IMG/VR virus record: IMGVR_UViG_3300047560_001719 | Coordinates: 1-57,799 of that record | Reading direction: 5' to 3' (one strand) | Source: a virus | Taxonomy: Duplodnaviria > Caudoviricetes | Length of the DNA: 57,799 nt | Part shown: one piece after another, positions 26,488 to 41,875 of the stretch | How positions within the stretch are numbered: the stretch's first letter is position 1 | Layout of the letters: every line of letters starts with the position of its first letter | Position numbers and translations under genes: made by a program | Notes under the pieces: generated by a model | What the model was told of the DNA's origin: nothing | Database searches by the model: none | What the model saw: the letters and a program-made list of their open reading frames with translations, nothing else

Positions 26488-27996
26488 ATGGCAAATAAGT
26501 TTCAGTTAAAGCGCACGACCGTATCTGGTCGTACAGCGAACACCACCGATAGTGGTAATACATCCTTCATCGATAAAGGCGAACTCGCCGTCAACTTGGC
26601 CGACAGAAAAGTCTTCTCGTCGGACTCGTCGAATGTCATCTTCGAAGTCGGTTCCAACCTCTCATCTCTTTCAGTAGGATCTATCGTAGCCAACGGGTCG
26701 TTGGGTACTAGCGGCCAGGTACTTACTACCAATAGTAGCGGAGTATACTGGGCTACTGCGGGTGGTGGAGTAAACGCGGATCAAGTCACTTACACCTATA
26801 CGATCGCTGCTAACACCACTGTTATCACCGGTGCAGACGATGCCACTCGAACTCTGACTTATACCTCCGGACTCGAAAGCGTGTTCATCAATGGATCTCG
26901 TCAGATTTCAGGAGTTGATTATAACACTACCAACTCTGCTGCTATCACTCTTACTTCGAACGTAATAGCCGGAGAAGTCGTACAGGTCATTACATGGCAA
27001 GGTGCAGTCAACAGCGCTAACGTCGATGCTCAGTATACTTGGACTAACACTCATACTTTTAATAGTCTACTCACAGCGGCAAACAGCATATACCTCACCG
27101 GAGGAGGTGATGTTATTATTTCTTCGGCAGGAGTCGGAGGAGCTAACGCTAATACATCTTTCTATAACGATGCATCTGATCTTTATATTAACGTAAACAA
27201 TGCGATTCGTGCTTATATTGCAAGTAATGGCAACTTCGGTGTAGGCAATACTTCTCCTGCTCATAAGTTTAGAGTAGATGGGAATGTATCTTATTCTGGC
27301 ACTCTCTTTACGGCAGGCATTTCAGCGAACGGATCAGTAGGTTCTTCTGGACAGATTCTTACATCGAACGGGTCACAAGCCTACTGGCAAACACAACAGT
27401 TTCGCACTGCCGGCCAAACAGTTATTTCCGCTAACACGACTCTTGATTCGACTTATCTCGGCGAAAACATTCTTGTTGTTACAGCTGATATTACTATCAC
27501 ACTGCCATCCAGCGGTTTCGATTCAGGCACTTTGGCTTTTATCTCAAACGTCTCGGGTGGTAAAGTCAACCTATCATATGCATATGCTGGTGACGGTCCT
27601 ACTGTTCTTTATCCAAACGATAGCGTTATTCTCTGTACTGATGGTAACGGATCCTCTCTTTATTGGCGCCAGTATTCTTATACTAATACGTTACAGTTAG
27701 AACCAATAGTAGCGGTTTCTGCATTAGACGTAGACTGCTCTAAAGGAACATATTTTACTAAGACTATCGCTGCTAATAGCACGTTTACATTCTCAAACGT
27801 ACCGACGAGTGTTGCGTATAGTTTCACTCTTGAAGTAACTCATACAAGCGGTACTATTACCTGGCCTGCTGCAGTGAAATGGCCATCAGATACAGCTCCT
27901 ACTCTCACAACTGGCAAAACTCACCTGTTCATGTTTACTACTGCTAATGGTGGTACGCGTTGGAGAGGTTCAGCTCTCGTGGACTATGTAAACTAA
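26488..27996 (+). CDS. Tail fibre protein (502 aa)
   Basis: FQLKRT.V.GR.....GELAVN.AD.K.F N-terminus; ANGS.G.SGQ.LT.N....YW modules; GNFGVGNTSPAHK; C-terminal ITWP..VKWP..TAPTLT domain. Confidence 0.82.
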   Translation: MANKFQLKRTTVSGRTANTTDSGNTSFIDKGELAVNLADRKVFSSDSSNVIFEVGSNLSSLSVGSIVANGSLGTSGQVLTTNSSGVYWATAGGGVNADQVTYTYTIAANTTVITGADDATRTLTYTSGLESVFINGSRQISGVDYNTTNSAAITLTSNVIAGEVVQVITWQGAVNSANVDAQYTWTNTHTFNSLLTAANSIYLTGGGDVIISSAGVGGANANTSFYNDASDLYINVNNAIRAYIASNGNFGVGNTSPAHKFRVDGNVSYSGTLFTAGISANGSVGSSGQILTSNGSQAYWQTQQFRTAGQTVISANTTLDSTYLGENILVVTADITITLPSSGFDSGTLAFISNVSGGKVNLSYAYAGDGPTVLYPNDSVILCTDGNGSSLYWRQYSYTNTLQLEPIVAVSALDVDCSKGTYFTKTIAANSTFTFSNVPTSVAYSFTLEVTHTSGTITWPAAVKWPSDTAPTLTTGKTHLFMFTTANGGTRWRGSALVDYVN

Positions 27997-28817
27997 TGGG
28001 TAGACTCGGTAGAATGCTTATGCGAGGAGCTGCTGGTAGGCGTGGAGGTCCTGGTCAGATAGCATATACGGTTCCCGGTACATATACTTGGGTAGCTCCG
28101 GCCGGCGTGACAAGTGTATGTGTTGTCTGCGTAGGTGGTGGAAGTTCGCAAGGTGGAGGCGGGGCTCTTGCATACGGTAATGATATTGCGGTCACAGCTG
28201 GTGCATCATATACTGTTGTAGTTGGTGGCACAGACACCAATACTGGAGGACAATCGTACTTTAGTTCAACATCTCTACTTTATGCGAATGGCGGAAATAG
28301 CAATGGATCAGGTGGCACCGGGGGAGGTACAGCAAGAAATGGAGGAGGTAGCGGCGGGAATCGTGGCGCTTCTGCAAGTGCCCCAGGTGGAGGTGGAGGA
28401 GCAGGTGGTTACAGCGGTAACGGTGGAGATGGCGGGTCTGGTACCAATCCTCCGGGACTTGGAGATATCAATTGGGGTGGTGGTAGTACAGGCGGTTCTG
28501 GAGGTGCAGGAGGTGGTGGAGCCGGAGGTACTTCCCTCACTAGCGTTTCTGGAGAGTCATCATATCCAGGTGGTGCCGGTGGTGGAGTAGGGTTATTGGG
28601 TCAAGGTTCATCGGGTGCCGGTATTGCAAGCGCATATAATCAGGGTGATGGGAACCCTGGCTCGGGAGGAAGTGGTAAACTCTATGGAGGTGGAGCCGGC
28701 GGATGGGCTTATGATTATGCTGGGCGTGAGGCCTACAACGGAGGTGGTAAAGGCGCAGTTCGTATCATATGGGGTACAAACAGATCGTTTCCTTCTACAA
28801 ATACAGGTGATGTATAA
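27996..28817 (+). CDS. Glycine-rich adhesin-like protein (gp38-like polyglycine architecture, 273 aa)
   Basis: ATG 27996 is coupled to the upstream TAA (TAATG); YT.PGTYTW.APAGVTSV.VVCVGGG ... many GGGGGAGG runs ... GG.GAVRIIWG. Confidence 0.75.
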   Translation: MGRLGRMLMRGAAGRRGGPGQIAYTVPGTYTWVAPAGVTSVCVVCVGGGSSQGGGGALAYGNDIAVTAGASYTVVVGGTDTNTGGQSYFSSTSLLYANGGNSNGSGGTGGGTARNGGGSGGNRGASASAPGGGGGAGGYSGNGGDGGSGTNPPGLGDINWGGGSTGGSGGAGGGGAGGTSLTSVSGESSYPGGAGGGVGLLGQGSSGAGIASAYNQGDGNPGSGGSGKLYGGGAGGWAYDYAGREAYNGGGKGAVRIIWGTNRSFPSTNTGDV

Positions 28818-29083
28818 TGAGACTATTCATACGACTACAAGATGGTCAGCCTGTTGATCATCCCATTTATGAAGAGAATATGAGACAGGCTTATCCAGGT
28901 ATTGATTTGGATAATTTACCTGAAACTTTTGCAGAGTTTGAGCGCATAGATGTTCCTGCTCTTCAAAAGTATGAAATATACGAAGGCGTTACATATCAAT
29001 GGGTTGATGGTATTGTTAAAGATGTGCACAGTGTACGCCCTATGACAGATGAAGAAAAAGCTGAACTCGAAGAATTATTATAA
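28817..29083 (+). CDS. Hypothetical protein, possibly fibre chaperone-like (88 aa)
   Basis: TAATG coupling; ends VRPMTDEEKAE, resembling the N-terminal half of tail-assembly chaperones. Confidence 0.65.
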   Translation: MRLFIRLQDGQPVDHPIYEENMRQAYPGIDLDNLPETFAEFERIDVPALQKYEIYEGVTYQWVDGIVKDVHSVRPMTDEEKAELEELL

Positions 29084-32000
29084 ATAATAAAAACAATTTT
29101 AGAGTCAAGAACGGGCTCACAGTAAGTAACGGGATCGTAGTAGAAGCCGGAGTTATTTCTGGTAACGGCTCTTCGATCACATCGGTCAACGCAGCTACTC
29201 TTAACGGTAACACCGCTGCTCAGCTTCGAGCTTATACTGACTCATCTATCGGTACATCCAACACTGCTATCGTAGCGAATGCTTCTGCGGCTTACACGAA
29301 CGCTGTAAGCTATACAGATACTAAAATTGGAACTGCCAACTCTGCCATCACTGGTAACGCTGCTACTGCTTATACGAACGCCACTTCGTTTGCATCGAAC
29401 GGTTCGAACATCTCGACAGGAACTGTAGCTTTCGCTCGCCTTCCTACTGTCGACTCGGTAGCTAATACATCAGTTGCATTAATCCCGACAGCCAACAACG
29501 TCAAGACTGCATACGATGCTGCTATCACAGCCAACAACAATGCTGCGTCTGCACTCACTGCGGCCGGTACAGCATACAGTAACGCTGTAACCTACACCGA
29601 CACCAAGATCGGTACGGCCAACTCTGCTATCGTAGCTAATGCATCGGCTGCTTATACTAACGCAGTTTCTTATACAGATGGCAAGATCCTAACTGCAAAC
29701 TCTGCTATTACAGGCAATGCTGCCACCGCCTACTCTAACGCGACTAGCTACACTGACACGAAGATCGGTACTGCAAACTCTGCGATGATCGCGAACGCCA
29801 GTGCAGCTTATACCAATGCTACAACCTATGCATCGAACGCTTCGAACATCTCGACAGGAACTCTTGCTTTCGCGAGACTTCCTACTGTAGACTCTGTAGC
29901 GAATACATCAGTAGCTTTGGTTCCTACTGCCAACAACGTCAAGACGGCATACGATGCAGCTATCACCGCAAATACCAATGCGCAGACAGCTTTGACTGCA
30001 GCGGGTGCAGCTTATACCAATGCAGTGAGCTACACAGATACGAAGATCGGTACTGCAAATACGGCCATGGCTGCTAACGCTGCAGCTGCTTATACAAATG
30101 CTGTCAGTTACACAGACGGTAAGATTCTAACTGCGAACTCTGCTATTACAGGCAACGCAGCTACGGCATATACCAATGCGACGACATACGCTTCGAATGC
30201 CAGCAATCTTTCTACCGGAACAGTAGCAGAAGCTCGGCTTCCATATCGTATGAACCAAAACGTTCGTACTACAGATTCTGTAGAATTTGCTGGTATCACT
30301 CTCACAGGAAACCTTGTTGTTTCAGGTAACGTGAACGTTGTCGGCGCAAATAACCTGATCGTGTCCGATAACATGATCTATCTGAACAGCAACAACGACG
30401 TCACGAACCCGGATATCGGTATCGCTGGTAACTACAACGACGGCGTGTATCACCACACGGGTATCTTCAGAGATGCCACTGACGGGTTCTGGAAAGTTTT
30501 TGATAACTATGATCCAGAACCAGACGCGAACGTGTACATCGATACTACTAACACGTCGTTCCATATCGCTGATTTCTGGGCAAATACAGCACGTATCGGT
30601 AACACATCAGTATACGCCACCATTAATACCACGACGTTTACTGGCACCGCGAACAACTCTACGTATCTTAATGGTCAACTAGCAGCTTACTATACGAATG
30701 CCACGAATATTAGTACAGGTACACTCGCAGCAGCTCGTTTACCTTCACTGTATCTCGGCACTACGACTATTCAGTCTACCAGCGCCGCGCAGGCTGTTAG
30801 CGGTATCACGACTCTTGCTGCAGGTAATACTACGATTACCGGTTTTGCAAACGTATCGGTGTCTGTTAACTCTGCTGCTCTTTCTGTCGGATCAAGCTTT
30901 GTAGCCAACACTACACAAGTAACTTATGGTATTCCACAGCTGATCAATAATAATCAGCATCTAAGATTCCAGACAGTCAACACTTCTGCATACGCATACT
31001 TTACACAGCAGAACGACGATAACTTTGTATTCTATACATCGAACACCACTTATGGCGCTCGTGCAGTATTCTCGATCTTTGCCAACAGCGTCACGAGTAC
31101 TTTTAACATCTCTCCAGGTGTTGTATTCAACGGCGGTATCTATGCTAACGGTTCGTACGGTACTTCTGGTCAAGTCCTAACAACGAATGGAACCGGAGTC
31201 TACTGGTCAACTGCATCAGCAGGTGTGAACGTCAACTCTACGTATGCTTGGACTAACACACACTCGTTTGCCGCCAACGTTACTTTTGCAAACAACATCT
31301 CTATCACTTCAGGAAACTCTTCTGTTGCTGGTGGGTTCTTGCTATTCAACGGTATAGCAGACGCTAACTGGAAGATCGGCAGAAATACCAACGGTACAAC
31401 CAAGTGGTACTACACAAACAACTCTCTTGATATCTTAGTAGCCAACTCGAACCTCGAAGGTATCGTTCTCGGTAACCCGCTCGTTAGCGGACAATCTTAC
31501 CTCGAAACTGGCCATGCCGGAACTTACATCGCAGGTAACGTAACTATCGGTAACACTTCGTCTAAATCTACCATCAACTCGACTGCGTTCTCAGGCTCTG
31601 CTAACAACTCTACATACTTTGACACAGCAACATGGGCAGCACCGAAAGCTATCGGTGGAGGCACTGCCAACTCGGGTGCTTTCACTACGGTAACTGCTAC
31701 GAGCGTTTCTGCTACTACAAACATCACCGCTACAGCAAACGTTTCGGGTGATATGGTTATCACAGCCAATAACGGTAACGGTACAAACTTCAAGGTCGGA
31801 GACGATGCTTGGATCGGAGACGTCAACCAGGCAGATACTCTTCGTATTCAAGGTCAACAGAGCGCAAACAACGCATACATCGTATTCGGCAATGCCGATA
31901 ACTCGATTAAGCTTGGCCGTGCAGGAACAGGAGCACTAACTTGGAACAGTAACTTTGCTGTTACAGGTAACGTTAACGTCAGCACTATTAATGCCACATC

Positions 32001-33918
32001 GTTCGGAGCTACGATCACGTCGAACGCTTCTGTAGCAGTCATGACGATCGGTAACTCTTCAGTGAGCTCAACCGTAAACAGCACGACGTTTACCGGCACC
32101 GCCAACAACGCTACGTATCTTAATGGTCAACTTGCTGCATACTATACCAATGCCACGAACATCACTACCGGTACTTTACCTTACGCTCAGATCCCAGCAA
32201 ACGTAATCAATACGACAGCGAACTTTACTATCTCTGGCCAGCATACCTATAATGTTGCAACGTGGGGAGTAATATTTAGAGCATCGAATACTACAAACTT
32301 CTCTGGAGCTAGATGGGAAGACACCGGTGGTACGGTTAGAGCAGGTTGGTATCGTTACGATAATTCTGATCTAACGCTGTCGACATACTATGCGAACGGT
32401 ACATATCAAGCTTCTCCTATTATTGTTTCATCAGCAACGGGAGCAGTTTCTCTTACATCGCTGTCAACGACAACCGGTACTTTCTCCGGCGCGGTTTCAG
32501 GTATTACTACTCTTGCAGCCGGTAACACTACTATTACTGGCTTTGCGAACGTATCTACTTCAGTCAACTCTGCACTGTTGACGGTTGGATCTAGCTTCAT
32601 TGCAAATACCACAGGTGCATATCATACAGGAACAGTCAACGCTGCATCTTATACAGTCGGAACAACGTTCGTTGCGAACAGTACATTCCTAACAGTAGGT
32701 ACAGCAACTCCATACAACAGCGGACTCGTTACATCATCTGCTCCCGATGGAAAACAAGCATATACTGCGCAAGTAGCCAACAATGTTTATTCACTATTCC
32801 AAGGATTCAACTCAAGCGGCGGTCTTGCTTTCCAAGTAACTGGTTCTGGATCTGTTACCGCAAACGGGTCATTGTCAGGAGTTACCACTCTTGCAGCTGG
32901 TAATACAACTATCACCGGATTCGCTAACGTTAGTGGTACCGGTGGAACGCAGCCTGCAATCGCTCTTAGAAGTGGTGTTTATGGAGCATTTGTTGTACCA
33001 CAAGCCAGTCCAGGCGCGTATAATAACTTAGTAGCTAATAATGACAATTTATTGTACTTCTCGAATGGCACTATAAACGGTGGAAATCTTGTCATTGGAT
33101 CATGGTCAGATCGTGCATCAGGCTATGGCATTAAATTTACCGGCAGTACATACGATTTAGCAGTTACTGCTAATACCCTCACTATTACTGGTAACACGAC
33201 TATTACCGGTTTCGCCAACGTAACTACTACTCTCCAGGTCGGAGGAGGCACTGCAGGTTCTCCAGCAATCACCGCTGCTACATCTACTGGCGGTGTTTCC
33301 CTGTCTCTTACAGATAGTGTTACGAGTACTCTTATCGTAAGGCATGATTCTGGATCAGGTCATCCTATTATTGGTACAAATGGTTCTGGTTTGAGACTTG
33401 CGGCTGGAGGTTCACAGTCAGGTCAAACTGCTATCACTATCATCAACAGTGGTAATACCGGTATCGGTAACACCTCTCCAGCACATAAGTTTTCAGTTAA
33501 CGGAACAACATACCTTGGAGGTATCACGACAGCTGCAGCTAACGTGGCGATGGCTAACAACTATATCGTTGCTCCTGCATTCCAAGCATACTCTGAATAC
33601 GTGTCGACGAATGCCACTGCAACTGGTGCTATCACTCTCGACCTGTCGACTTCGAACTTCTTCAACCTGACTCTGACAGGTAACATCACTCCGACGTTTA
33701 GCAACGCTCCTTCTGGTAGAATGTTCTCGTTCACGTTCGTTGCCAAGCAAGACGCGACAGGTGGTAGAACGATCACATGGCCGACAGGAACGAAATGGCC
33801 AGGCGGTGTTGCACCTCCTGCAACGACTACGGCAAACGCCATAGATATATGGTCAGTCATGACATACGACGGCGGTACTACATGGATCGCTTCACTCTCA
33901 GTTAAAAATGCGAGCTAA
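29065..33918 (+). CDS. Long tail fibre protein; reading frame open from 29065, true start codon unresolved
   Basis: Translated by hand, frame 1 is stop-free from 29065 (TRRIIINNKNNFRVKNGLTVSNG...) into the annotated ATG 29785 and carries the same repeats on both sides of that ATG. Contains YTD coiled-coil repeats, SGITTLAAGNTTITGFANVS repeats and a C-terminal ITWP...KWPGG.AP domain. Confidence 0.8.
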   Translation, partial: TRRIIINNKNNFRVKNGLTVSNGIVVEAGVISGNGSSITSVNAATLNGNTAAQLRAYTDSSIGTSNTAIVANASAAYTNAVSYTDTKIGTANSAITGNAATAYTNATSFASNGSNISTGTVAFARLPTVDSVANTSVALIPTANNVKTAYDAAITANNNAASALTAAGTAYSNAVTYTDTKIGTANSAIVANASAAYTNAVSYTDGKILTANSAITGNAATAYSNATSYTDTKIGTANSAMIANASAAYTNATTYASNASNISTGTLAFARLPTVDSVANTSVALVPTANNVKTAYDAAITANTNAQTALTAAGAAYTNAVSYTDTKIGTANTAMAANAAAAYTNAVSYTDGKILTANSAITGNAATAYTNATTYASNASNLSTGTVAEARLPYRMNQNVRTTDSVEFAGITLTGNLVVSGNVNVVGANNLIVSDNMIYLNSNNDVTNPDIGIAGNYNDGVYHHTGIFRDATDGFWKVFDNYDPEPDANVYIDTTNTSFHIADFWANTARIGNTSVYATINTTTFTGTANNSTYLNGQLAAYYTNATNISTGTLAAARLPSLYLGTTTIQSTSAAQAVSGITTLAAGNTTITGFANVSVSVNSAALSVGSSFVANTTQVTYGIPQLINNNQHLRFQTVNTSAYAYFTQQNDDNFVFYTSNTTYGARAVFSIFANSVTSTFNISPGVVFNGGIYANGSYGTSGQVLTTNGTGVYWSTASAGVNVNSTYAWTNTHSFAANVTFANNISITSGNSSVAGGFLLFNGIADANWKIGRNTNGTTKWYYTNNSLDILVANSNLEGIVLGNPLVSGQSYLETGHAGTYIAGNVTIGNTSSKSTINSTAFSGSANNSTYFDTATWAAPKAIGGGTANSGAFTTVTATSVSATTNITATANVSGDMVITANNGNGTNFKVGDDAWIGDVNQADTLRIQGQQSANNAYIVFGNADNSIKLGRAGTGALTWNSNFAVTGNVNVSTINATSFGATITSNASVAVMTIGNSSVSSTVNSTTFTGTANNATYLNGQLAAYYTNATNITTGTLPYAQIPANVINTTANFTISGQHTYNVATWGVIFRASNTTNFSGARWEDTGGTVRAGWYRYDNSDLTLSTYYANGTYQASPIIVSSATGAVSLTSLSTTTGTFSGAVSGITTLAAGNTTITGFANVSTSVNSALLTVGSSFIANTTGAYHTGTVNAASYTVGTTFVANSTFLTVGTATPYNSGLVTSSAPDGKQAYTAQVANNVYSLFQGFNSSGGLAFQVTGSGSVTANGSLSGVTTLAAGNTTITGFANVSGTGGTQPAIALRSGVYGAFVVPQASPGAYNNLVANNDNLLYFSNGTINGGNLVIGSWSDRASGYGIKFTGSTYDLAVTANTLTITGNTTITGFANVTTTLQVGGGTAGSPAITAATSTGGVSLSLTDSVTSTLIVRHDSGSGHPIIGTNGSGLRLAAGGSQSGQTAITIINSGNTGIGNTSPAHKFSVNGTTYLGGITTAAANVAMANNYIVAPAFQAYSEYVSTNATATGAITLDLSTSNFFNLTLTGNITPTFSNAPSGRMFSFTFVAKQDATGGRTITWPTGTKWPGGVAPPATTTANAIDIWSVMTYDGGTTWIASLSVKNAS
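29079..29086 (+). promoter_or_regulatory. T4-type late promoter TATAAATA
   Basis: Exact consensus overlapping the TAA at 29081-29083. Confidence 0.75.
29230..30240 (+). repeat. 26-aa Ala/Thr/Asn coiled-coil repeats (AYTNAVSYTDTKIGTANSAITGNAAT) within a larger 438-bp-spaced duplication
   Basis: Six full 26-aa units plus a partial one; the block starting AYTNAT(S/T)(F/Y)ASN..NISTGT.AFARLPTVDSVANTSVAL occurs at 29368 and 29806. Confidence 0.85.
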
Positions 33919-33921
33919 TCG

Positions 33922-35601
33922 ATGGGTATTGGTGGCGGTTCTAAATTTACATTAGAAAAAACATGGCGTGGATCTGGAACGGGAACTACTAAGTTCAACT
34001 CTCCGGGTAACATCGCTATTCCTTATGGTCGTAACAGCATCTACGTTTCAGGGCAGGGTGGTTCTGGGAACGCGCTCGTTCCAGGACCAGGAACTGGTAC
34101 TTACAACGTTATTCCTGGTAATGCGACCGGTACTTACAACATTATTCCAGGAAATGCTACTGGAACCTACAACATCGTTCCTGGTAACATCTCGACTTAC
34201 AATATCATTCCTGGTCCAGTGGCTACGTACAACATCATCTATCCAGTAGCTACATACAACATCATCTATCCAGGAACTGGTACATACAACATTATCTATC
34301 CAGGAACTGGAACCTATAATATCGTTCCAGGTAATGCTACTGGTGCTTATAACATTATTCCAGGAAATGCTACTGGCATCTACAACAAAATTGCCGGTAA
34401 TATAGCTACATACAACATCATCTATCCAGGAACCGGCACGTACAATATCGTTCCAGGTAATGCTACTGGAACCTACAATATCATTCCAGGCAATGCTACT
34501 GGTATCTACAACAAGATTCCCGGTAATATAGCTACATACAATATCATCTATCCAGGAACTGGTACATATAACATCGTTCCGGGTAATGTCGTTTCTTACA
34601 ACGTCACATATCCAGGAACCGGTACTTACAATAAGATCCCAGGTAACGTAGTAAGTTACAACATCGTTCCCGGTAATGTCTCTACGTATAACGTCATTCC
34701 GGGTAACGGTACTTACTACCCTCCGTATCCTGGATTTCAAAATTACTATTATTCTCCGAAGTACGGTGGTCCTGTACTAGACTTCTTTTATAATGCCCCA
34801 ACGCCCGGTTTTGTAGGTGCACCTTATAACGCTCCGACCGGTGGTCCTGCAAACTACAACGCTGCAACAAACGGGCCCGCGAACTACAACGCTGCAACAA
34901 ATGGTCCTCAGAACTACAACGTAGCGAACGGACCTGCAAACTACAACGCTGCAACAAATGGTCCTCAAAACTACAACGTAGCCAATGGTCCGGCTAACTA
35001 CAATGCGCCTACTAACGGCCCGACTAACTATAATGCTGCGACAAATGGTCCGCAGAACTACAATGCACCTACCAACGGTCCTCAAAACTACAACGTAGCC
35101 AATGGTCCGGCTAACTACAATGCACCTACCAATGGTCCGACTAACTACAATGCGCCTACTAACGGTCCTCAAAACTACAACCCTGCTACCAATGGTCCGC
35201 AGAACTATAACGTAGCGAACGGTCCTCAAAACTATAACGTAGCCAATGGTCCTGCAAACTATAATGTAGCGAACGGCCCTGCGAACTACAATGCTCCGAC
35301 GAACGGCCCTGCGAACTACAATCCAGCTACCAACGGTCCACAGAACTACAATCCAGCTACCAACGGTCCTCAGAACTATAACCCAGCAACAGCTGGTCCG
35401 CAGAACTATAATACTCCTACTCCAGCAGTTGCAGGTAACCCATCTTCTGCTCTTGGAATCACTTTCCCTGGGTCAAACGTCGGAGGTACACCTGCTCCTG
35501 TTATAAGTAATCAGCTGGCAAGCTACTACTCATACCCAGATGGTCAAACGCATTCGGTAACGGTAGCTCCCGGAGGTTATATCGACATTACCATTCAATA
35601 A
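33922..35601 (+). CDS. Pro/Asn/Tyr/Gly-rich two-arm repeat protein (559 aa), probable fibre-associated adhesin or spike
   Basis: 20 TYN(I/V)(I/V)(PGN/YP)-type repeats, an aromatic centre, then 20 NGP(Q/A/T)NYN-type repeats. The flanks (KFNSPGNIAIPYGRNSIYVSGQGGSG ... GGYIDITI) resemble the ends of the Gly-rich adhesin at 27996. Confidence 0.8.
   Translation: MGIGGGSKFTLEKTWRGSGTGTTKFNSPGNIAIPYGRNSIYVSGQGGSGNALVPGPGTGTYNVIPGNATGTYNIIPGNATGTYNIVPGNISTYNIIPGPVATYNIIYPVATYNIIYPGTGTYNIIYPGTGTYNIVPGNATGAYNIIPGNATGIYNKIAGNIATYNIIYPGTGTYNIVPGNATGTYNIIPGNATGIYNKIPGNIATYNIIYPGTGTYNIVPGNVVSYNVTYPGTGTYNKIPGNVVSYNIVPGNVSTYNVIPGNGTYYPPYPGFQNYYYSPKYGGPVLDFFYNAPTPGFVGAPYNAPTGGPANYNAATNGPANYNAATNGPQNYNVANGPANYNAATNGPQNYNVANGPANYNAPTNGPTNYNAATNGPQNYNAPTNGPQNYNVANGPANYNAPTNGPTNYNAPTNGPQNYNPATNGPQNYNVANGPQNYNVANGPANYNVANGPANYNAPTNGPANYNPATNGPQNYNPATNGPQNYNPATAGPQNYNTPTPAVAGNPSSALGITFPGSNVGGTPAPVISNQLASYYSYPDGQTHSVTVAPGGYIDITIQ
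34072..34692 (+). repeat. N-arm: 20 coding repeats of about 27-33 bp ending in Tyr-Asn
   Basis: Counted by splitting the translation at each YN. Confidence 0.92.
34831..35412 (+). repeat. C-arm: 20 coding repeats of 27-30 bp ending in Asn-Tyr-Asn
   Basis: Counted by splitting the translation at each YN; includes a 47-bp exact DNA repeat at 34960 and 35077. Confidence 0.92.
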
Positions 35602-35623: not shown

Positions 35624-36217
35624 ATGCCATATAATATTCCTAAGTACGGGAAACAACTGAATTGTTTTGCGGTGTGGTCCGGAGGATTTACTTCAGAAGA
35701 AGTCGATAAGATCATTGATCTCGAACGACTTCAAACATTTGAAAAAGGAAAAGTTGGTTTTGATAAGAATGCTGCTGCGCCCGCTGAGACACGAGACTCA
35801 GACGTATCCTGGATTCATCACGATCAACACAGCGACTGGCTTTTCAATCGTATGGCCGGTATCACGTCTATCGTCAACTACGATAACTTCATGTACAACA
35901 TCGATGGAGTCGATGCGTTTCAGTACACGAAGTATGGACCAAACCAGCACTATACTTGGCACTGGGATGTAGAGTTCGGCTGGCAAAAATGGGTTCGAAA
36001 GATCTCGGCTGTTCTGTTACTCTCTGATCCTGATGAGTATGAAGGTGGAGAACTTGAGATCGTTAACACTGGAAACCTCGAAGACAAAGTTTCCTTTAAA
36101 CCGAACAAAGGTGATATCGTATACTTCGCTTCGTGGATGCCGCATCGTGTTGCTCCGGTAACTTCTGGTCTTCGTAGAAGTCTTGTAGCATGGATAATGG
36201 GTGAAAGAGAATGTTGA
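35624..36217 (+). CDS. 2OG-Fe(II) oxygenase, prolyl-4-hydroxylase/PKHD-like
   Basis: HxD (WHWD), RKIS..LLLSDP.EYEGGEL, distal His in F.SW.PHRV.PVT.G.R.SLV.W. Confidence 0.9.
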   Translation: MPYNIPKYGKQLNCFAVWSGGFTSEEVDKIIDLERLQTFEKGKVGFDKNAAAPAETRDSDVSWIHHDQHSDWLFNRMAGITSIVNYDNFMYNIDGVDAFQYTKYGPNQHYTWHWDVEFGWQKWVRKISAVLLLSDPDEYEGGELEIVNTGNLEDKVSFKPNKGDIVYFASWMPHRVAPVTSGLRRSLVAWIMGEREC

Positions 36218-36948
36218 GTTGGAATCCTTTTAAGAAAAAGCCTATCATCGAGTTTTATTGTCATCGAGACGATGTAGCCACTCTTCCTCAGCCTCGACCG
36301 GCAGCAAAGTACATACCGGAATGGTACAAGAGAATTCCACCTGTGATCAATGATGGTAATAACGACCGCGATCAATACGGAGCTCGAACCTTTACAGCCA
36401 AGAAGTGCATGCCAATGTTGGATGCGATGTCTCTTGGATATGTTATTCCCTTGATATCAGATCTTTCAGTTAGGTCAAATCATGATTGTAGCACGATCGA
36501 AGTCACATCTTCTCCACATATCAACGTTTGCGAGTTCCATGACATTCGCCAACTCGGAGAGAGAACTGCTCCTGGATTCCCAGCTCCTCCTCTTAAATTC
36601 ATCAATCCGTGGATCGTGAAGACCGCTCCGGGTTGGTCGACGCTGTTTATGCCGCTTATTAACAATATGGAAAGCCACTTTACTTGTCTTTCTGGTCTGG
36701 TTGATACAGATACCTATCCAAAGGAAGTTAACTTCCCGGCTGTTTGGCACACACCAAACTTTGATGATTTGCTTCCAGCTGGTACTCCCCTTGTAGTAGC
36801 TATTCCGGTCAAGAGAGATGCAATTCCGACAAAACCGGTAGTACGTGACATGACAGATAAAGAATTTGATAAAGTCAATCTTATTACGAAGATGCAGAAC
36901 ACACGTAGAAAAGTTTATACTGATGAATTGAGAGCACCTAGAAAATGA
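36211..36948 (+). CDS. Conserved phage protein of unknown function (DUF6065-like), paralog 1
   Basis: PEWYK, T.KKC.P.LDAM..GY.IP, KF.NPW.VKT.PG.S.LF, G.VDTD.Y...VNFP, GTPL...IP.KR; family name recalled, not searched. Confidence 0.6.
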   Translation: MLSWNPFKKKPIIEFYCHRDDVATLPQPRPAAKYIPEWYKRIPPVINDGNNDRDQYGARTFTAKKCMPMLDAMSLGYVIPLISDLSVRSNHDCSTIEVTSSPHINVCEFHDIRQLGERTAPGFPAPPLKFINPWIVKTAPGWSTLFMPLINNMESHFTCLSGLVDTDTYPKEVNFPAVWHTPNFDDLLPAGTPLVVAIPVKRDAIPTKPVVRDMTDKEFDKVNLITKMQNTRRKVYTDELRAPRK

Positions 36949-37685
36949 AGAATCCATTTACATCATGGTTTAAACCGCAAAAAGATCTCGAATTTGTAGA
37001 TACTACTCGCCTTACGTATCATAACTTTACGGTCGAAAGAGCGTGCGATGTCAAAGCAAACACGTATCGCCATCAACTTGATACGTATGGAAAACATATG
37101 ATGCCGGGTTGTCCAGGAATCCTCGACTACTCTCAGTATGGGTATATTATTCCTGCATGGGTAGACATCCATATTTTTGCAAACAAAGCAGGAGTTTCCT
37201 GGCGCATAGGAGATGGTGCAGCTCGTGGAGATAGAGGGTTTGCAAACGGAAATCCTATGGATTATAGGTTGATAGACGGAGCCTTCGAAGTCGAAGATGT
37301 TCCTCCTACGGCTATTCTATTTCCATCTCCTTGGAAAATCTTTGCACATAAAAATATCAGTGCAATGGTAATGCCTGCAACGTATCATGGTTCTCATTTT
37401 GAAGATTTACATGTTATTCCAGGAATAGTTGACTACAACAAGTTTCATGCAGTCAATTTTATTTGTATGCCGCGACGATCTTGCGAAGTTCATATTAAAG
37501 CCGGAGAACCGCTTCTTCATGTCATGCCGTTTTTAAATAAGTCTATTACAGCGTCGGTCGGTCCAGGCACAGAAGAGCAGGTAGATAAAGCAAAGAACAT
37601 GATTCCGGGTGATGACGAGCAATACTATCGAAAGTTCATGAGAACAAAAAAGATTTTTAAGATAAACAAAGAGAGTGAGCAATGA
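36945..37685 (+). CDS. Conserved phage protein of unknown function, paralog 2 of the preceding gene
   Basis: CPGILDY..YGYIIPAW.D, F.SPW.I, PGIVDY..F..VNF and IKAGEPL..V.P align by eye with 36211-36948; ATGA coupling. Confidence 0.6.
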   Translation: MKNPFTSWFKPQKDLEFVDTTRLTYHNFTVERACDVKANTYRHQLDTYGKHMMPGCPGILDYSQYGYIIPAWVDIHIFANKAGVSWRIGDGAARGDRGFANGNPMDYRLIDGAFEVEDVPPTAILFPSPWKIFAHKNISAMVMPATYHGSHFEDLHVIPGIVDYNKFHAVNFICMPRRSCEVHIKAGEPLLHVMPFLNKSITASVGPGTEEQVDKAKNMIPGDDEQYYRKFMRTKKIFKINKESEQ

Positions 37686-38698
37686 ATATTTTTGTTTCGA
37701 TCTGTTCTTACCAAGATCCATTACTGCCACATACTATCAAGAGTATGATGCAGACCAAATCTAATAGAAACAACGTCGTGTACTCGATCTTCGAACAGAC
37801 TCGTTATGAGGATTCTCTTGCATGCACAGAACCTGTATTAGTAGGTCGTGAAGACGTTATCTACAAAAGAATTGATCCTGAGTATTCGGACGGATGTGTG
37901 TGGGCAAGATACGTCAACATGTTGAACGTTACTGACGAGTTCGATTTCATCTATCAGATCGATTCGCATATTCTGCACGATCAGCATTGGGATCGCGCGC
38001 TGATCGAAGATTATAAGAGAGCGTTGGATATATCTGGAACAAACAAGATCATCATCACGGGATCGTGTAAAGGTTTCAACATCTCTGAAGAAGATGACGA
38101 GATAAAGACTTATTTGATTGAACAAGAAGATCTATCTTGTAAAGTAGGGTACTACACAATCGATCCTGAAACTCTCATTCCAGTAGTGCACGGAGATTCT
38201 TTTCCTGCAACCGAAATGCCTCAGCCGGCATTTCATATCATGGCAGGCAACTTCTTTACTCACAAAGATTGGGTAGATAATGTCGGCTTAAATCCAAAAA
38301 TCTTCTTCGAAGGCGAAGAAGTAATGATGGCAATGATGTCGTATGCAGCTGGCTATAAGATGTTCCATCACAGTAAGATGGTTTCTTATCACCTAGCTGA
38401 TACAAAGACTTGGCATACAAAGAACAATGTAGTCGAACCAGCAGGTGCACGCCGTAGGCAAAGACTTTCTGAGATCGGTCGACTTGAATGGAGGAAATAC
38501 TTAGATACATGTCGTGAAGATATGCTAGAAGCTTTCCATCAAGAGTTCGGAATCGATTTTATTAATCTTGAAATCGCAGAGAGTGCCCGAACATACAGCT
38601 TAGACACTCCAGGTAAAGCAAATCATTTTACTGAATTCAAGAAGGTTCCAGAAGAAAACCAACTTCCTCCTGCTCTGTTTATGAAAGACGATGAATGA
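37682..38698 (+). CDS. Glycosyltransferase resembling Skp1-hydroxyproline GlcNAc-transferase (GT60 / Pfam GlcNAc)
   Basis: IFVSI.SY.D..L..TI, G..WAR, QIDSH.....WD..LI (DSH metal motif), AGNFF and FFEGEE match the GT60 pattern. Confidence 0.8.
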   Translation: MNIFVSICSYQDPLLPHTIKSMMQTKSNRNNVVYSIFEQTRYEDSLACTEPVLVGREDVIYKRIDPEYSDGCVWARYVNMLNVTDEFDFIYQIDSHILHDQHWDRALIEDYKRALDISGTNKIIITGSCKGFNISEEDDEIKTYLIEQEDLSCKVGYYTIDPETLIPVVHGDSFPATEMPQPAFHIMAGNFFTHKDWVDNVGLNPKIFFEGEEVMMAMMSYAAGYKMFHHSKMVSYHLADTKTWHTKNNVVEPAGARRRQRLSEIGRLEWRKYLDTCREDMLEAFHQEFGIDFINLEIAESARTYSLDTPGKANHFTEFKKVPEENQLPPALFMKDDE

Positions 38699-39228
38699 TC
38701 GTTTGTTCTATTCCTCGGTGCGGAGCTACTCGGTTCTGTCTTGATTTGCAAGATCAGACCGATATTCCATTCATCGGAGAACTGAACCCGCTTTACATGT
38801 TCGAGAACAAGAAGGTGGATCATCACGAGACAAAGTTTCAGAAAGATTTTACTCCTGATCGGTTTGCCGATCTTATCTACGATAAGAAAAGCAGCATCGT
38901 CATGATAAATAAATCATCGTATCTGATAGCTGACAAAGCTGACTATGTGATCTTGAGAAAGAATATGATAGACGCTTTCATGAGCTACGCTAACTTCATG
39001 CTGAAGTTGTACCCAGATATCGATACGAAGGTGCTCTTAAAAGAGATACAGTTTACTGTCTACGACTACTTTGGTTTAAAGTCTTACGTTGATAAGTATG
39101 TATGTAATATCGTGTGGTATGAAGACTATTTTGGAAAGAGTGGAACACAGACTCCTTTATTGGATAGTCATAGGCATGGATCGGTAATAAAGAAAGCAAT
39201 TCAGGATGTTTTTAAGGAATGTAGATAG
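38695..39228 (+). CDS. Sulfotransferase-like P-loop protein
   Basis: N-terminal IVCSIPRCGATRF resembles the 5'-PSB loop (PRSGST), followed by GE.NP, ILRKN..D...S (3'-PB-like) and V.YED. Confidence 0.55.
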   Translation: MIVCSIPRCGATRFCLDLQDQTDIPFIGELNPLYMFENKKVDHHETKFQKDFTPDRFADLIYDKKSSIVMINKSSYLIADKADYVILRKNMIDAFMSYANFMLKLYPDIDTKVLLKEIQFTVYDYFGLKSYVDKYVCNIVWYEDYFGKSGTQTPLLDSHRHGSVIKKAIQDVFKECR

Positions 39229-39931
39229 AACATATCACTTGTTTGCTCTACAACTTATTATGCCCGTCATCGCAGTATGGGCAATGATAACATACTTTTC
39301 ATGGCCATGGGTCTTAGCATCCTTGGTCATGTTTTTCCTTATGCGGTGTGTAGGAGCAGTGGTCACGTATCACCGTATTCATGGTCATCGTACACATACT
39401 ATGCATCCTGTAGTCGAGTTTATATGTACAGGCCTCGGTTTTTATGGTAGCATATCATCGCCGATCGACTTCTGTGCAGCGCACGTCAACCATCACAAGT
39501 ACATGGACACGGAAAAGGATCCTCACTCTCCGAAGTACCTCGGTTGGAAAGCTATGTTCCCTCTCTTTTGGGTAGATCGACAAGCAGGAGATCTTCGAAC
39601 GATAGTAAGATTAGGTAAGAACAAGATCACGAGATTTTATCATGACTACTACTGGCCGTTGCTTCTCGTTCCGTTCTTGTTACTCTTCGTTTCTTTGAAC
39701 GCGTTCTTGTTTTTGTTCGTAGTACCGACCGGTCTTTCGTTGTTTACGCTTTCGATATCAACTCTCAATCATGATAAGAACGGACCAAAAAAGATGCCAT
39801 GGTGGTACGGAATTTTGACCGGTGGAGAACACCATCATAAATGGCATCACGAACATGCAACAGACACGAGCGGAGAAGGATGGCTCGACTACGTTGCCAA
39901 TGCAGTAGGCACAAAAAGGGTTAAGAAATGA
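39206..39931 (+). CDS. Membrane fatty-acid desaturase family protein (delta-9-like)
   Basis: Three His boxes YHRIHGH, HVNHHKY.DTEKDPHSP and GEHHHKWHH, with hydrophobic transmembrane segments. Confidence 0.9.
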   Translation: MFLRNVDRTYHLFALQLIMPVIAVWAMITYFSWPWVLASLVMFFLMRCVGAVVTYHRIHGHRTHTMHPVVEFICTGLGFYGSISSPIDFCAAHVNHHKYMDTEKDPHSPKYLGWKAMFPLFWVDRQAGDLRTIVRLGKNKITRFYHDYYWPLLLVPFLLLFVSLNAFLFLFVVPTGLSLFTLSISTLNHDKNGPKKMPWWYGILTGGEHHHKWHHEHATDTSGEGWLDYVANAVGTKRVKK

Positions 39932-40470
39932 ATATCGTACACTCTATAATCAACGATCTATCAGAGATCGACTTCGATGATCTCTACGAAAGAGCGAAGG
40001 ATGCAGTTGAGGCTAGTTGGCCAGCACATTCTCCGTATACTGACGCAGAAAGAAAAACAAAGTTGCTTGAGATGATTGAGAGCGGTATTAACAACGAATG
40101 GCCAGGGACGAACGTACGTGGTGAAGATGACGTATGGTTTATGGCAAAGTCAGTCGATACTGATACAGGAATAGTCATGAGTCTTGGATGTGGTTACATT
40201 ATCGATGGAGACACACACGATGGTAGAATCTCGCTTGTTGCTCCAGACGAAACAGGATCTCGGAACTATCTGTACAACGAGCAGACTCGTTTAGATAGAA
40301 ATCGATTTTATACGGAAAACGGTATATCCAAAATCCTTTATAGAATGATCCCTACTAACTCTGTGATGCATAGGTTCATTAGATACAGAGCGAATGCTGG
40401 TTATTATAGTGTTATAGAAGAAACACCGAGAGGTGATGTAACAGATATTATGGTATCTCTCAACTTATAA
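39928..40470 (+). CDS. Hypothetical protein (possible GNAT-like fold, weak)
   Basis: ATGA-coupled to the desaturase; no confident motif. Confidence 0.6.
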   Translation: MNIVHSIINDLSEIDFDDLYERAKDAVEASWPAHSPYTDAERKTKLLEMIESGINNEWPGTNVRGEDDVWFMAKSVDTDTGIVMSLGCGYIIDGDTHDGRISLVAPDETGSRNYLYNEQTRLDRNRFYTENGISKILYRMIPTNSVMHRFIRYRANAGYYSVIEETPRGDVTDIMVSLNL

Positions 40471-41241
40471 TTACCACTTTGTTCCGTGTCTTGAACTATA
40501 CTTCTTCTCGGGATGAAACGCAGCAAAGTCTTCATAGCGTGGATCTCCAGGTTCGGCTCTCTTGCCGATGCTGTACTCTCCGATATGAGTAACGAGGTTC
40601 TTTCCTTCTGAACTCTTTAGCTTGCATGTCTTCATTTCCATTTGTTTCAACGATGCTGCCACCACATACTCGCTGAGATTCTTCTCTCCAGTCATCTCAC
40701 GATGCGGGATATCTGCCATGCTTCTTGGAAAGAAGCTCGCTAGACTCCAGAAATACTGATCAGAGAGCTCTACTCGATATTGCGTACTAAGATTTTGAGC
40801 TTTGTCTAGAATGATGTCCGACTCGAGTGGTTGTGTCTCTTCTTCGAAGTCATACCACTTCTGACGCGTCAAGCATACTTGAGAGAACGTTTTGTTGTCA
40901 TGTAAAATCTGAGCGAGATCGAGAACCTTCACCGGTTGGTTGAATGTAACGTCGTCTTCTGACAAGTAAACATAATCGTAATCTCTCTGTCTCAATAGCT
41001 CGAACGTGGCGTTCCATACATATGGAAGTCCCATGTTCTGTTGATGCAGAATTACTTCAGTGTAACCAAAGTTCTTGGCCAACTCATACATCGTTCCGTC
41101 ATGCCGACCTTTTGGCATGTCATCGATAAAGATGCCTTCGACTTCACAGTGACTAAAGTCAAGCATATCTCTCTGAGACTTGAGAGTCGGGATCAGGTAC
41201 TCGAGTCTATTCGTCGACCAGATGATCTTACATACTTTCAT
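40471..41241 (-). CDS. GT-A fold glycosyltransferase (GT2-like)
   Basis: I.STNRLEYL..TL.S, FIDD, H.QN.G....WN, YDYVYLSEDD (DxD-like) and V.HIG. Confidence 0.8.
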   Translation of the reverse strand: MKVCKIIWSTNRLEYLIPTLKSQRDMLDFSHCEVEGIFIDDMPKGRHDGTMYELAKNFGYTEVILHQQNMGLPYVWNATFELLRQRDYDYVYLSEDDVTFNQPVKVLDLAQILHDNKTFSQVCLTRQKWYDFEEETQPLESDIILDKAQNLSTQYRVELSDQYFWSLASFFPRSMADIPHREMTGEKNLSEYVVAASLKQMEMKTCKLKSSEGKNLVTHIGEYSIGKRAEPGDPRYEDFAAFHPEKKYSSRHGTKW

Positions 41242-41807
41242 CAGTAAGTCTCCGTATCAAAGAAGAACGTTTGGAAAAGACGACCGTCGTATAGATCCTT
41301 GCCGAAGTAATCGAGGCTGGCATGGAACAGGTCACCGCGATAGATCACAAGTCGATTGTACTTGTTGCCTACAACGTCGATTCGATCCCATTTAGTATAG
41401 TCGTATCCTTCATGTATGTTCTCAGTAGAACGATACTCTCCTGATTCTTTGTGACGATAGATGGCAGTGCCTGCGGTAGGAGGAGCATCAGGAGTCAAGT
41501 AGCATACTGCTGCCCACATACTCGTATGATCGCTGTGGATCCATGTACGATCGAACGCAGTTGCATACTGAAAAGCTCCAGTATAACCAGAGTCTTCATG
41601 CCAATTGGTCACAGGACCAGCAAACCACATCCAGTTCTGAATGCACTGTTTGACGTCGTCTGTGAGAAATGATTTTGTTCTTTTACCTGGATAGTTTCCA
41701 GCGACATCGAATTCTTGGGTCAGAGCGTATGCTCTCACAGCATCAGGATTTATGTAAAAGTTATCGATGATCATCAAGTCTAGATTCATGTCAAGTCGCC
41801 CGTTCAT
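41241..41807 (-). CDS. 2OG-Fe(II) oxygenase-like protein (DUF6445-like)
   Basis: IIDNFY.NPD.VR..AL...F...YPG.R, WIHSD (HxD), WAAV.YL.P, YNRLVIYRG..FH.S and R..Q.FF. Confidence 0.82.
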   Translation of the reverse strand: MNGRLDMNLDLMIIDNFYINPDAVRAYALTQEFDVAGNYPGKRTKSFLTDDVKQCIQNWMWFAGPVTNWHEDSGYTGAFQYATAFDRTWIHSDHTSMWAAVCYLTPDAPPTAGTAIYRHKESGEYRSTENIHEGYDYTKWDRIDVVGNKYNRLVIYRGDLFHASLDYFGKDLYDGRLFQTFFFDTETY

Positions 41808-41821
41808 AGTGTTACTGACTG

Positions 41822-41829
41822 TATTTATG
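41822..41829 (-). promoter_or_regulatory. Minus-strand late promoter CATAAATA (TATTTATG on +)
   Basis: 15 nt upstream of the minus-strand ORF start at 41807. Confidence 0.6.
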
Positions 41830-41834
41830 CGCCT

Positions 41835-41857
41835 TATAAATAGCTAGTGGATAAATA
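41835..41857 (+). promoter_or_regulatory. Tandem late promoters TATAAATA (41835-41842) and GATAAATA (41850-41857)
   Basis: Upstream of the GAGG SD and gp13 ATG. Confidence 0.75.
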
Positions 41858-41875
41858 TACTAAAAGAGGGATTAC

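Follow-up and report, generated by a model that had tools for sequence, protein, structure and literature searches.

The window analysed here is a fragment of 57.8 kb from an uncultured T4-like myovirus (57,799 nucleotides; IMG/VR record IMGVR_UViG_3300047560_001719; CheckV completeness 34%). No isolate has a large terminase more than 57% identical to its own, and Synechococcus phage S-RIM8 comes closest. Between the tail fibre genes and gp13 the window contains a string of genes whose core, named here REP-A-B-C-D, encodes a repeat protein (REP), an oxygenase dependent on 2-oxoglutarate (2OG), two related proteins of the DUF6065 type, and a glycosyltransferase of the GT60 type. We see about an even chance that this core is a cassette which hydroxylates and glycosylates the neighbouring protein of the fibre module.

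The string begins with a tail fibre gene (29785..33918, plus strand; 1377 amino acids), which has a phrog_9017 C-terminal domain (1.6e-15) and lies directly 5' of REP. The REP gene (33922..35601, plus strand) encodes 559 amino acids; its product, a repeat protein rich in Pro, Asn, Tyr and Gly, is the proposed substrate. It is followed after 22 nt by A (35624..36217), a 2OG-Fe(II) oxygenase gene of the superfamily that includes prolyl 4-hydroxylases (P4H), PHD and PKHD enzymes (PF13640). The next genes, all on the plus strand, are B (36211..36948; DUF6065, PF19541 and phrog_7084, with a predicted dUTPase-like fold), C (36945..37685; a divergent paralog of B, phrog_7084), D (37682..38698; a GT60-type GT-A glycosyltransferase, PF11397), and the accessory genes E, F and G. 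The successive overlaps from A to G are 7, 4, 4, 4, 23 and 4 nt. The minus-strand pair H and I converges on G with no spacer and finishes 68 nt short of gp13. A sequence-only reading of this DNA had taken all nine genes from A to I for one late-expressed pathway of proline hydroxylation and subsequent glycosylation of virion proteins. The gene positions and coupling that it described agree with the coordinates of the open reading frames (ORFs). Seven of its nine enzyme labels hold; the sulfotransferase label of E is unconfirmed, and the GT-A label of H is weak.

Conservation across phage lineages

Relatives of D are encoded by 272 IMG/VR stretches, and 80 of these loci were fetched. In total, 117 IMG/VR loci (numbered L) and the window were grouped into 31 lineages at 90% identity of a B/C protein; ORF calling was simple and ATG-only. 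In the close clade, where D is 67-75% identical, the whole string recurs, with E, F and G at times absent or reshuffled. Among 36 more remote loci, whose D is 38-47% identical and whose gp13 identity falls to 39%, 35 keep A, B, C and D in the same order, the lone exception (L068) being cut at its 5' end, and none of the 36 has E, F or G.

The A gene is present in the fetched DNA of 27 of the 31 lineages. Two B/C genes follow it in every one of the 27, and D is found at most five genes after A in 22 of them. Of the 25 lineages for which 1.2 kb or more of upstream DNA is available, 22 have a REP-type gene directly 5' of A, its end no more than 150 nt away. The three misses are a locus with two intervening genes (L065), a locus where the script took the second copy of A (L110), and a lineage affected by the ATG-only calling (L096/L097), in which the REP C-terminal domain, located by tblastn, lies 34 nt 5' of A. 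A reciprocal IMG/VR search with this domain produced 37 loci, 16 of them on contigs new with respect to the D search. Where at least 3.5 kb of downstream DNA was available (n=34), A, B and C were found in 34/34 loci and D in 29/34.

REP-A-B-C-D is a conserved core and behaves as one unit. The combination of a P4H-superfamily oxygenase, a GT60-type transferase and a Pro-rich protein, noticed in the sequence-only reading of a single genome, is conserved in the comparison of 31 lineages. The unit, as well as REP and D separately, is absent from 50,697 records of phage isolates, apart from a 24% identical tblastn match of D in the Xanthomonas jumbo phage Xoo-sp13, whose gene context is uninformative. 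The only match of REP in these records, to a pentapeptide-repeat protein of a Caulobacter phage, is weak and probably compositional, and megablast with the whole cluster produced no match in them.

The oxygenase and the glycosyltransferase

The product of A matches 2OG-FeII_Oxy_3 (PF13640) with an E-value of 8.1e-19 (68.8 bits, cut-off 27). Among 13 sequences of the A family, H113, D115 and R184 never vary and H174 is kept in at least 90%; we take H113, D115 and H174 to be the HxD...H iron triad and R184 the 2OG-binding residue. In the comparison of the A profile with solved structures, hydroxylases of the PKHD/PiuC type are the best matches (6e-12 to 5e-11), followed by prolyl 4-hydroxylases (from 3e-5 for 5c5t, presumably the chlorovirus enzyme, to 1e-4) and EGLN1 (5e-4). 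No TET/JBP structure was matched in the Protein Data Bank (PDB) at E<=1, and no such Pfam family at E<=0.1. Because the profile matches PKHD enzymes, prolyl 4-hydroxylases and EGLN1, and because the motif is conserved, A is by sequence a member of the prolyl-hydroxylase superfamily with a putative prolyl specificity. The initial label P4H-like was thus correct for the superfamily, but not for the closest solved relatives, which are PKHD/PiuC enzymes rather than proven prolyl hydroxylases. Our literature search named no substrate of the PiuC/YbiX-type hydroxylases. Genes of the A family, 33-39% identical, occur in 352 phage records, mostly of cyanophages. The predicted complex of A and B scored 0.00 against a mark of 0.32, which counts neither way.

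The product of D matches PF11397 ('GlcNAc') with an E-value of 3.7e-24 (86.3 bits, cut-off 21), and so do 120/120 D homologs among the matches listed. The DxH motif, D94-S95-H96, is invariant in the family. In searches with the AlphaFold2 (AF2) model of D (pLDDT 85), the Foldseek matches listed to rank 50 are all polypeptide N-acetylgalactosamine (GalNAc) transferases (ppGalNAc-Ts). VIA, which is independent of Foldseek, gives Z-scores of 21.3 and 20.4 for ppGalNAc-Ts and at most 17.4 for other GT-A enzymes. Sequence searches of the PDB with D, profile included, found no match. Family GT60 consists of polypeptide alpha-N-acetylglucosamine (GlcNAc) transferases related to ppGalNAc-Ts, and also takes in polypeptide GlcNAc-transferases directed at Thr/Ser (PMC8724618). 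The fold of D is nearest to the polypeptide GalNAc-transferases and therefore argues for a protein acceptor; the model suggests that D is a polypeptide-transferase-like GT-A enzyme. The family match above the cut-off, the invariant DxH and the GT-A/ppGalNAc-T fold of the model all agree with the original description of D as GT60-like.

Oxygenase-glycosyltransferase couples in bacteria

The bacterial comparison covered the best 80 of 198 D-like loci. By tblastn, A, B, C and D were found together in one of these, a phage-like contig of 4.4 kb binned with a metagenome-assembled genome (MAG). An iterative profile search found A-like oxygenases near the transferase in eight further, non-phage loci, and Pfam assigned PF13640 in 8/8. 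In these loci the PF13640 gene is fused to the glycosyltransferase gene, overlaps it or lies at most 21 nt from it, except in a Thermoanaerobaculia MAG, where the distance is 2.1 kb. In three loci of the SAR86 type (L124, L125, L160) a divergent PF13640/PF11397 pair lies between genes for an RpiR-type regulator and a MazG-like protein. In Rubrivivax and Steroidobacteraceae MAGs the two genes are adjacent. In a Burkholderiales MAG (L122) a single frame of 641 amino acids contains PF11397 and PF13640. In an alphaproteobacterial MAG (L151, 2932-10302) a stop-free frame of 2456 amino acids has eight PF11397 matches, which represent several GT60 copies, PF13640 in two stretches, and PF13661; it also includes an AhpC/TSA-like stretch (23.9 bits, below the cut-off of 26). 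Several of the couple-bearing loci encode D homologs that rank with the closest bacterial relatives of the phage D. B and C are not present in these couples. The idea of a hydroxylase coupled to a GT60 enzyme is supported by PF13640/PF11397 adjacency or fusion in the eight bacterial loci.

One more bacterial PF11397 gene (2.3e-75) was observed in Yersinia aldovae (L129, 2665-9647). It is located in a type VI secretion cluster (TssG, ImpA), immediately after the gene of a fimbrial-domain protein, and this context hints at protein glycosylation in a type VI setting.

No Pro-rich neighbour was seen in the bacterial oxygenase-glycosyltransferase loci, and A-family genes of phage isolates are also located elsewhere. 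These observations would fit a cassette acting on host proteins or on the envelope; its proximity to REP would then reflect no more than a late-region site that accepts insertions. Cyanophage glycosyltransferases are usually read as modifiers of the cell surface or of DNA (PMC12801897). However, the enzymes stay linked to REP in relatives with as little as 39% gp13 identity, this link survives rearrangements and tracks the number of REP copies, and the enzymes also differ according to whether the fibre gene is REP or collagen-like. We therefore consider a host target rather unlikely.

The DUF6065 proteins

B matches DUF6065 (PF19541) with an E-value of 2.5e-7 and phrog_7084 with 4.5e-52, and C matches phrog_7084 with 1.2e-20. 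Since both match phrog_7084, they are paralogs, although their identity is 18%. The only Pfam match of B is DUF6065, and C has none; no dUTPase family was matched by either protein. The alignment of B and C has a shared invariant pair V164-D165 within a G-x-V-D motif, which in our view resembles motif III of dUTPases. The B family has 43 invariant residues, including three cysteines (C17, C66, C159) and one histidine (H110).

The AF2 model of B (pLDDT 78) matches dUTPases and dCTP deaminases by Foldseek with an E-value of 5.7e-4. By VIA the best match has Z 10.7 and a root-mean-square deviation of 3.2 over 119 aligned residues; the first 22 ranks are filled by dUTPases, dCTP deaminases and herpesviral dUTPase-like proteins, and the next match has Z 4.7. 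The fold was modelled on B and extended to C by paralogy, and both are predicted to carry the dUTPase/dCTP-deaminase fold. The sequence-only reading listed B and C as two paralogous unknowns. Paralogs they are, but they can now be described as DUF6065 proteins with a predicted dUTPase fold and as the steadiest partners of the oxygenase.

Literature searches on DUF6065 found no paper. Relatives, about 30% identical, are encoded by haloarchaeal tailed viruses, namely Halophage HF1 (L082) and 56 other records. In HF1, the one record examined, the DUF6065 gene adjoins genes for baseplate and minor virion proteins. In cyanophage Syn9 the relative lies among halogenase and oxygenase genes, beside two tryptophan-halogenase genes.

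Phages glycosylate hydroxylated bases, and the predicted fold of B and C is that of pyrimidine-nucleotide enzymes. Thus the cassette might modify nucleotides or DNA, in the manner of hydroxymethyl-base glycosylation. However, A is of the PF13640 type with no TET/JBP match (PDB at E<=1, Pfam at E<=0.1), D is most similar to polypeptide transferases, the genes are located in the late structural module, the bacterial couples have no B or C, and Pfam assigns no dUTPase family to B or C. Based on the families of A and D, the late-module position and the Pfam evidence on B and C, DNA modification was set aside as highly improbable.

The repeat protein and the fibre genes

REP of the window consists of 13% Pro, 14% Gly, 18% Asn and 11% Tyr. 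Proteins of the family have 350-870 amino acids, with 8-19% Pro, 11-21% Asn, up to 17% Tyr and 8-17% Thr. Their N- and C-terminal domains are conserved among relatives, and the repeats between these domains are hypervariable. Prolines and a YN motif are present in every repeat region, and the repeats often form two blocks flanking a Cys-containing central domain. Fibre genes of the same kind precede REP in the relatives as well, and this gene order would place REP in the virion.

The layout with two blocks is seen in the window, in L046, L062, L072 and in other loci, and the central domain often contains cysteines. In REP of the window the second block reads approximately as the reverse of the first (PGNATGTYNII and NGPANYNAAT). 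The repeat units are wholly different between lineages, and from one to three REP genes occur in tandem.

Two other fibre genes lie further upstream in the window. The gene at 26488-27996 encodes a second fibre protein with the phrog_9017 C-terminal domain. The gene at 21565-23295 encodes a collagen-like fibre of 576 amino acids with GPQ/GAT triplets and 49 overlapping runs of four G-x-x triplets. No oxygenase or other enzyme gene adjoins it here, whereas the collagen-like genes described below for L110 and L019 do have an oxygenase gene as neighbour, and the suggestion that this GPQ fibre is a substrate linked to the enzymes was not upheld by its neighbourhood, where no gene of the cluster lies beside it. 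Finally, an ORF at 27960-28817 (285 amino acids, 33% Gly) starts with a 'TYTWVAPAGVTSV...GGG'-type sequence resembling the N-terminal segment of REP.

Variant cassettes

In three lineages the order is REP-A'-D-REP-A-B-C, that is, there are two repeat proteins, each followed by an oxygenase. In the five loci with no D, a Sulfotransfer_2 gene (PF03567, 4.8e-10 and 3.2e-5) is found between A and B, and the same sulfotransferase family adjoins the cassette in other lineages too. Sulfation, also part of the earlier proposal, is thus represented by sulfotransferases recurring in the variant cassettes of relatives, and not by E itself. Close relatives differ between G and H (for example L035, 12792-14058), where they have a PF13640 oxygenase gene and a Sulfotransfer_1 gene (PF00685, 3.6e-5). 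This pair is missing from the window, as G and H abut at 40470/40471. Further accessory genes near the cassettes encode 2OG-FeII_Oxy_5 and PhyH oxygenases, a protein similar to PrmA and lysine methyltransferases, and a GT4 enzyme.

Second pairs of the core genes occur next to other fibre-like genes. In L110 a divergent B'-A' pair follows a collagen-like gene (1245 amino acids, 39% Gly). In L019 the gene of a protein of at least 1029 amino acids with GNPG triplets has a second A'-B' pair as its neighbour, on the opposite strand.

In the sub-clade formed by L019, L006, L013, L015, L017, L021, L022 and L044 the block from the fibre gene through REP and A to G, H and I included, has the opposite orientation with respect to gp13. 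In the same sub-clade the inversion is followed by a minus-strand block, which holds the second A'-B' pair and a Gly-rich collagen-like gene.

The variants bear on the order of the reactions. Both A and D could act on REP or fibres, but not in sequence: D would modify Ser/Thr directly, as the mucin-type GT27 enzymes and some GT60 enzymes do, whereas A would modify another residue or stabilise helices of the polyproline type. The D-less variants retain A-B-C, the threonine content of REP proteins is 8-17%, the folds nearest to D are those of Ser/Thr-directed ppGalNAc-Ts, and the GT60 family includes Thr/Ser-directed members (PMC8724618). On the other hand, the fusion or adjacency of PF13640 and PF11397 genes in bacteria favours coupled steps, and D directly follows the A' copy in the variant lineages. 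Independent action of A and D is in our opinion unlikely.

A candidate pathway of fibre modification

The reading we favour, hydroxylation and glycosylation of REP by the cassette, may be outlined as follows. REP, a hypervariable Pro/Asn/Tyr repeat protein encoded after the fibre gene, would be made late, alongside the enzymes. A would hydroxylate residues of the repeats, most likely prolines. D would then add a sugar derived from a UDP-sugar, probably an N-acetylhexosamine (HexNAc), to the new hydroxyl or to Thr/Ser. B and C would accompany A throughout, with a probable role in substrate handling or in a further catalytic step. Lineage-specific sulfotransferases, oxygenases, a methyltransferase, a GNAT-like protein and other glycosyltransferases would vary the decoration, and in some lineages REP would be sulfated instead of glycosylated. 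The purpose might be to stabilise, shield or diversify repeats of the polyproline type, in a protein that perhaps caps the fibre. We infer the substrate, the modified residue, the order of steps, the donor sugar, the location in the virion and the timing from the gene order, protein families, predicted folds, conservation and co-occurrence described above. Modification of the neighbouring repeat protein is the most economical explanation of a core that behaves as one unit, has enzymes from protein-modifying families, and varies in composition according to the fibre gene next to it.

Several observations weigh against this explanation. The nearest solved relatives of A are of the PKHD/PiuC type, and the matches to proven prolyl hydroxylases are 10^6 to 10^8-fold weaker. 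Some A-family genes of isolates adjoin DNA helicase or UvsW/UvsY genes, and thus the family is not specific to fibres. The nucleotide-enzyme fold of B and C has no obvious role in protein tailoring. In two lineages one or two extra genes separate REP from A. All lineages are T4-like phages, and part of the synteny is explained by their shared ancestry. Finally, REP has no relative of known structure or location.

More tentatively, and we would not rate this above a fair-sized minority chance, the locus would be a phage system of hydroxylation followed by O-glycosylation (or sulfation) for a hypervariable host-recognition fibre, and the first case of glycosylation linked to a hydroxy-amino acid in a bacterial virus; the dUTPase-fold pair would be an obligatory partner of the hydroxylase, and the bacterial PF13640-PF11397 genes would be prokaryotic relatives of the protist Skp1 pathway. 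Literature searches, with supplementary files outside their scope, found no report of a REP-A-B-C-D cassette, of hydroxyproline glycosylation in phages, or of a prokaryotic P4H-GT60 couple.

If the proposal is true, receptor-binding fibres of phages bear hydroxyl, sugar or sulfate groups invisible in the genome sequence. Host-range prediction, fibre stability and protease resistance would all be affected, and the contest between phage and host would gain a post-translational layer. DUF6065, which occurs in T4-like phages, cyanophages and haloarchaeal viruses, would receive its first function, and the hydroxylase-GT60 couple would reach beyond protist Skp1 to bacteria and the viruses that infect them. 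Being small and self-contained, the cassette is tractable in E. coli.

Comparison with known systems

In the Skp1 pathway of Dictyostelium and Toxoplasma, the prolyl 4-hydroxylase PhyA is followed by Gnt1, an enzyme of CAZy family GT60. The phage cassette is similar in that a PF13640-type oxygenase and a PF11397/GT60 transferase would act in the cytoplasm, independently of a secretory pathway. Unlike Skp1, the proposed phage substrate is long and repetitive and offers many potential sites, and the cassette has two constant partners with the predicted dUTPase fold. A is closer to PKHD/PiuC-type enzymes than to the PHD type. No Skp1-like substrate or extending transferases were noticed, although no dedicated search for Skp1 or PgtA/AgtA-type enzymes was made. 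The glycans of Skp1 are linked to hydroxyproline (PMC8724618).

The predicted fold of D is nearest to the catalytic domains of ppGalNAc-Ts and its DxH is invariant, as in the mucin-type GT27 and protist GT60 enzymes. The proposed acceptor is repetitive and contains Pro and Thr, again resembling mucin-type glycosylation. Unlike mucin-type enzymes, D has neither a lectin domain nor a membrane anchor, is encoded by a phage, and is coupled to an oxygenase.

Among giant viruses of eukaryotes, chloroviruses have a prolyl 4-hydroxylase and Mimivirus has a collagen hydroxylase-glycosyltransferase. There, as proposed here, a repeat protein and its would-be hydroxylase come from the same viral genome. 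However, the present virus infects a bacterium, and a GT60 enzyme and DUF6065 proteins are part of its cassette. In mycobacteriophages, as reportedly described by Freeman et al. in 2023, phage-encoded glycosyltransferases decorate the phages' own virion proteins, in the capsid and tail tube. That system differs in its transferase families and in its capsid and tail-tube targets, and is not known to involve a hydroxylase step.

The layout of REP may be likened to that of gp38, the adhesin of Salmonella phage S16, for which no modification is known. The adhesin (PDB 6F45) forms the tip of the long tail fibre, is encoded after the distal fibre gene, and has helices of the polyglycine-II/polyproline-II type and hypervariable segments (PMC6851490). 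Similarly, REP is encoded after a fibre gene, and its repeats form two halves with a central domain between them; the likeness is one of layout and description.

Cyanophages share some of the genes as well. The A and I families are common in cyanomyoviruses, and the His boxes of F are similar to those of DesC/SCD enzymes. Cyanophages have a lipid desaturase, vFAD (PMC5776448), but F is not closely related to it and has no tblastn match in the isolate records.

Accessory genes

Gene E (38695..39228, plus strand) encodes a 177-amino-acid accessory protein that has no assigned family, Pfam and NCBIfam producing no match at E<=0.1. The conserved N-terminal segment P-R-C-G-A-T resembles, in our view, the PKxGTT loop binding 3'-phosphoadenosine 5'-phosphosulfate (PAPS), and there is a weak Atlas lead to sulfotransferases at rank 29. 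Eight relatives of E scanned by Pfam produced one Sulfotransfer_1 match at E 0.1 and otherwise none. Comparison of E by hhalign with two real sulfotransferase families of related loci gave a probability of at most 0.2%; the sensitivity of this comparison is low, as the control between these two families reached 17%. Thus, with no profile match and with the scan of relatives and hhalign negative, the sulfotransferase label of E was not confirmed, and what remains of it is the loop-like motif and the Atlas lead.

Gene F (39206..39931, plus strand) encodes a short membrane protein similar to di-iron desaturases, with three conserved His boxes (H56/H61, H93/H96/H97, H209/H211/H214/H215). Its sole match among solved structures is acyl-CoA desaturase 1 (SCD1; 4ymk, E 0.0028; 4zyo, 0.0076), to which boxes 1 and 2 align. 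No Pfam FA_desaturase match was found, and NCBIfam DesA scores 33.7 bits against a cut-off of 400. The His boxes and the SCD1 match support the label desaturase; by these features F is probably directed at lipids and unrelated to the tailoring.

Gene G (39928..40470, plus strand) encodes a 180-amino-acid accessory protein. It has no Pfam match, and its Atlas model aligns to clusters with the GNAT acetyltransferase fold (TM-score 0.60-0.68).

Gene H (40471..41241, minus strand) encodes a GT-A-like protein. Its GT2 match (3.5e-4, 21 bits) is below the cut-off of 23.3, which leaves the label GT-A transferase weak. Its acidic triplet E95-D96-D97 is conserved, its sequence matches in the PDB are at chance level, and tblastn found no match in the isolate records. 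Gene I (41241..41807, minus strand) matches DUF6445 (PF20043; 3.2e-15, 57.1 bits, cut-off 24) and has the conserved residues H91-x-D93, H162 and R176, similar to 2OG-oxygenase motifs. It may thus be retained as a second gene of the 2OG-oxygenase type, although a sequence search of the PDB produced no match. Homologs of I occur in 40 records, nearly all of cyanophages and uncultured marine viruses, plus two of a Pelagibacter phage. The H-I pair adjoins gp13 in distant lineages too.

E, G, H and I would thus be variable accessories in the window. Since E, F and G are limited to the close clade and H-I is a separate pair beside gp13, the view of all nine genes as a single pathway was abandoned. 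The same observations could indicate a hypervariable island of unrelated auxiliary genes with no common substrate, as in cyanomyoviruses. Here F is 91% identical to that of the group L038-L041, whereas the genes around it are 64-86% identical, and this difference suggests a recent exchange of F between relatives. Furthermore, close relatives hold the Sulfotransfer_1 and 2OG-oxygenase genes that are absent from the window, and the arrays of 2OG-oxygenase genes in Syn9 include relatives of DUF6065 and DUF6445. However, such an island explains the accessories and not REP-A-B-C-D, whose order and coupling are kept in 27 lineages, and as an account of the cassette we consider it improbable.

Candidate late promoters

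A T4-type late-promoter motif, TATAAATA, is found at 29079..29086 on the plus strand, 5' of the string from the fibre gene through REP to G. The window contains seven exact matches of this motif, all on the plus strand, against 1.6 expected. There is none between 29079 and 41835; the next copy, at 41835-41842, precedes gp13 (phrog_211), which starts at 41876 and is followed by gp14, gp15, gp16, gp17 and gp18, including the genes of the small and large terminase and of the sheath. This spacing fits a single late transcript from the fibre gene to G. The description of the cluster as late-expressed is consistent with the plus strand of the string, its position in the late module and the TATAAATA motifs, and these sequence features are the whole basis of the label. 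Scans of the window for sigma-70 promoters and terminators gave nothing above chance.

Motifs with one mismatch are not above chance either (45 against 42), and for this reason CATAAATA, a candidate late promoter 14 nt 5' of the start of I, is only suggestive. It lies on the minus strand (41822-41829) in the 68-nt spacer between I and gp13 (41808-41875), which also contains the plus-strand TATAAATA at 41835; the arrangement resembles two divergent late promoters.

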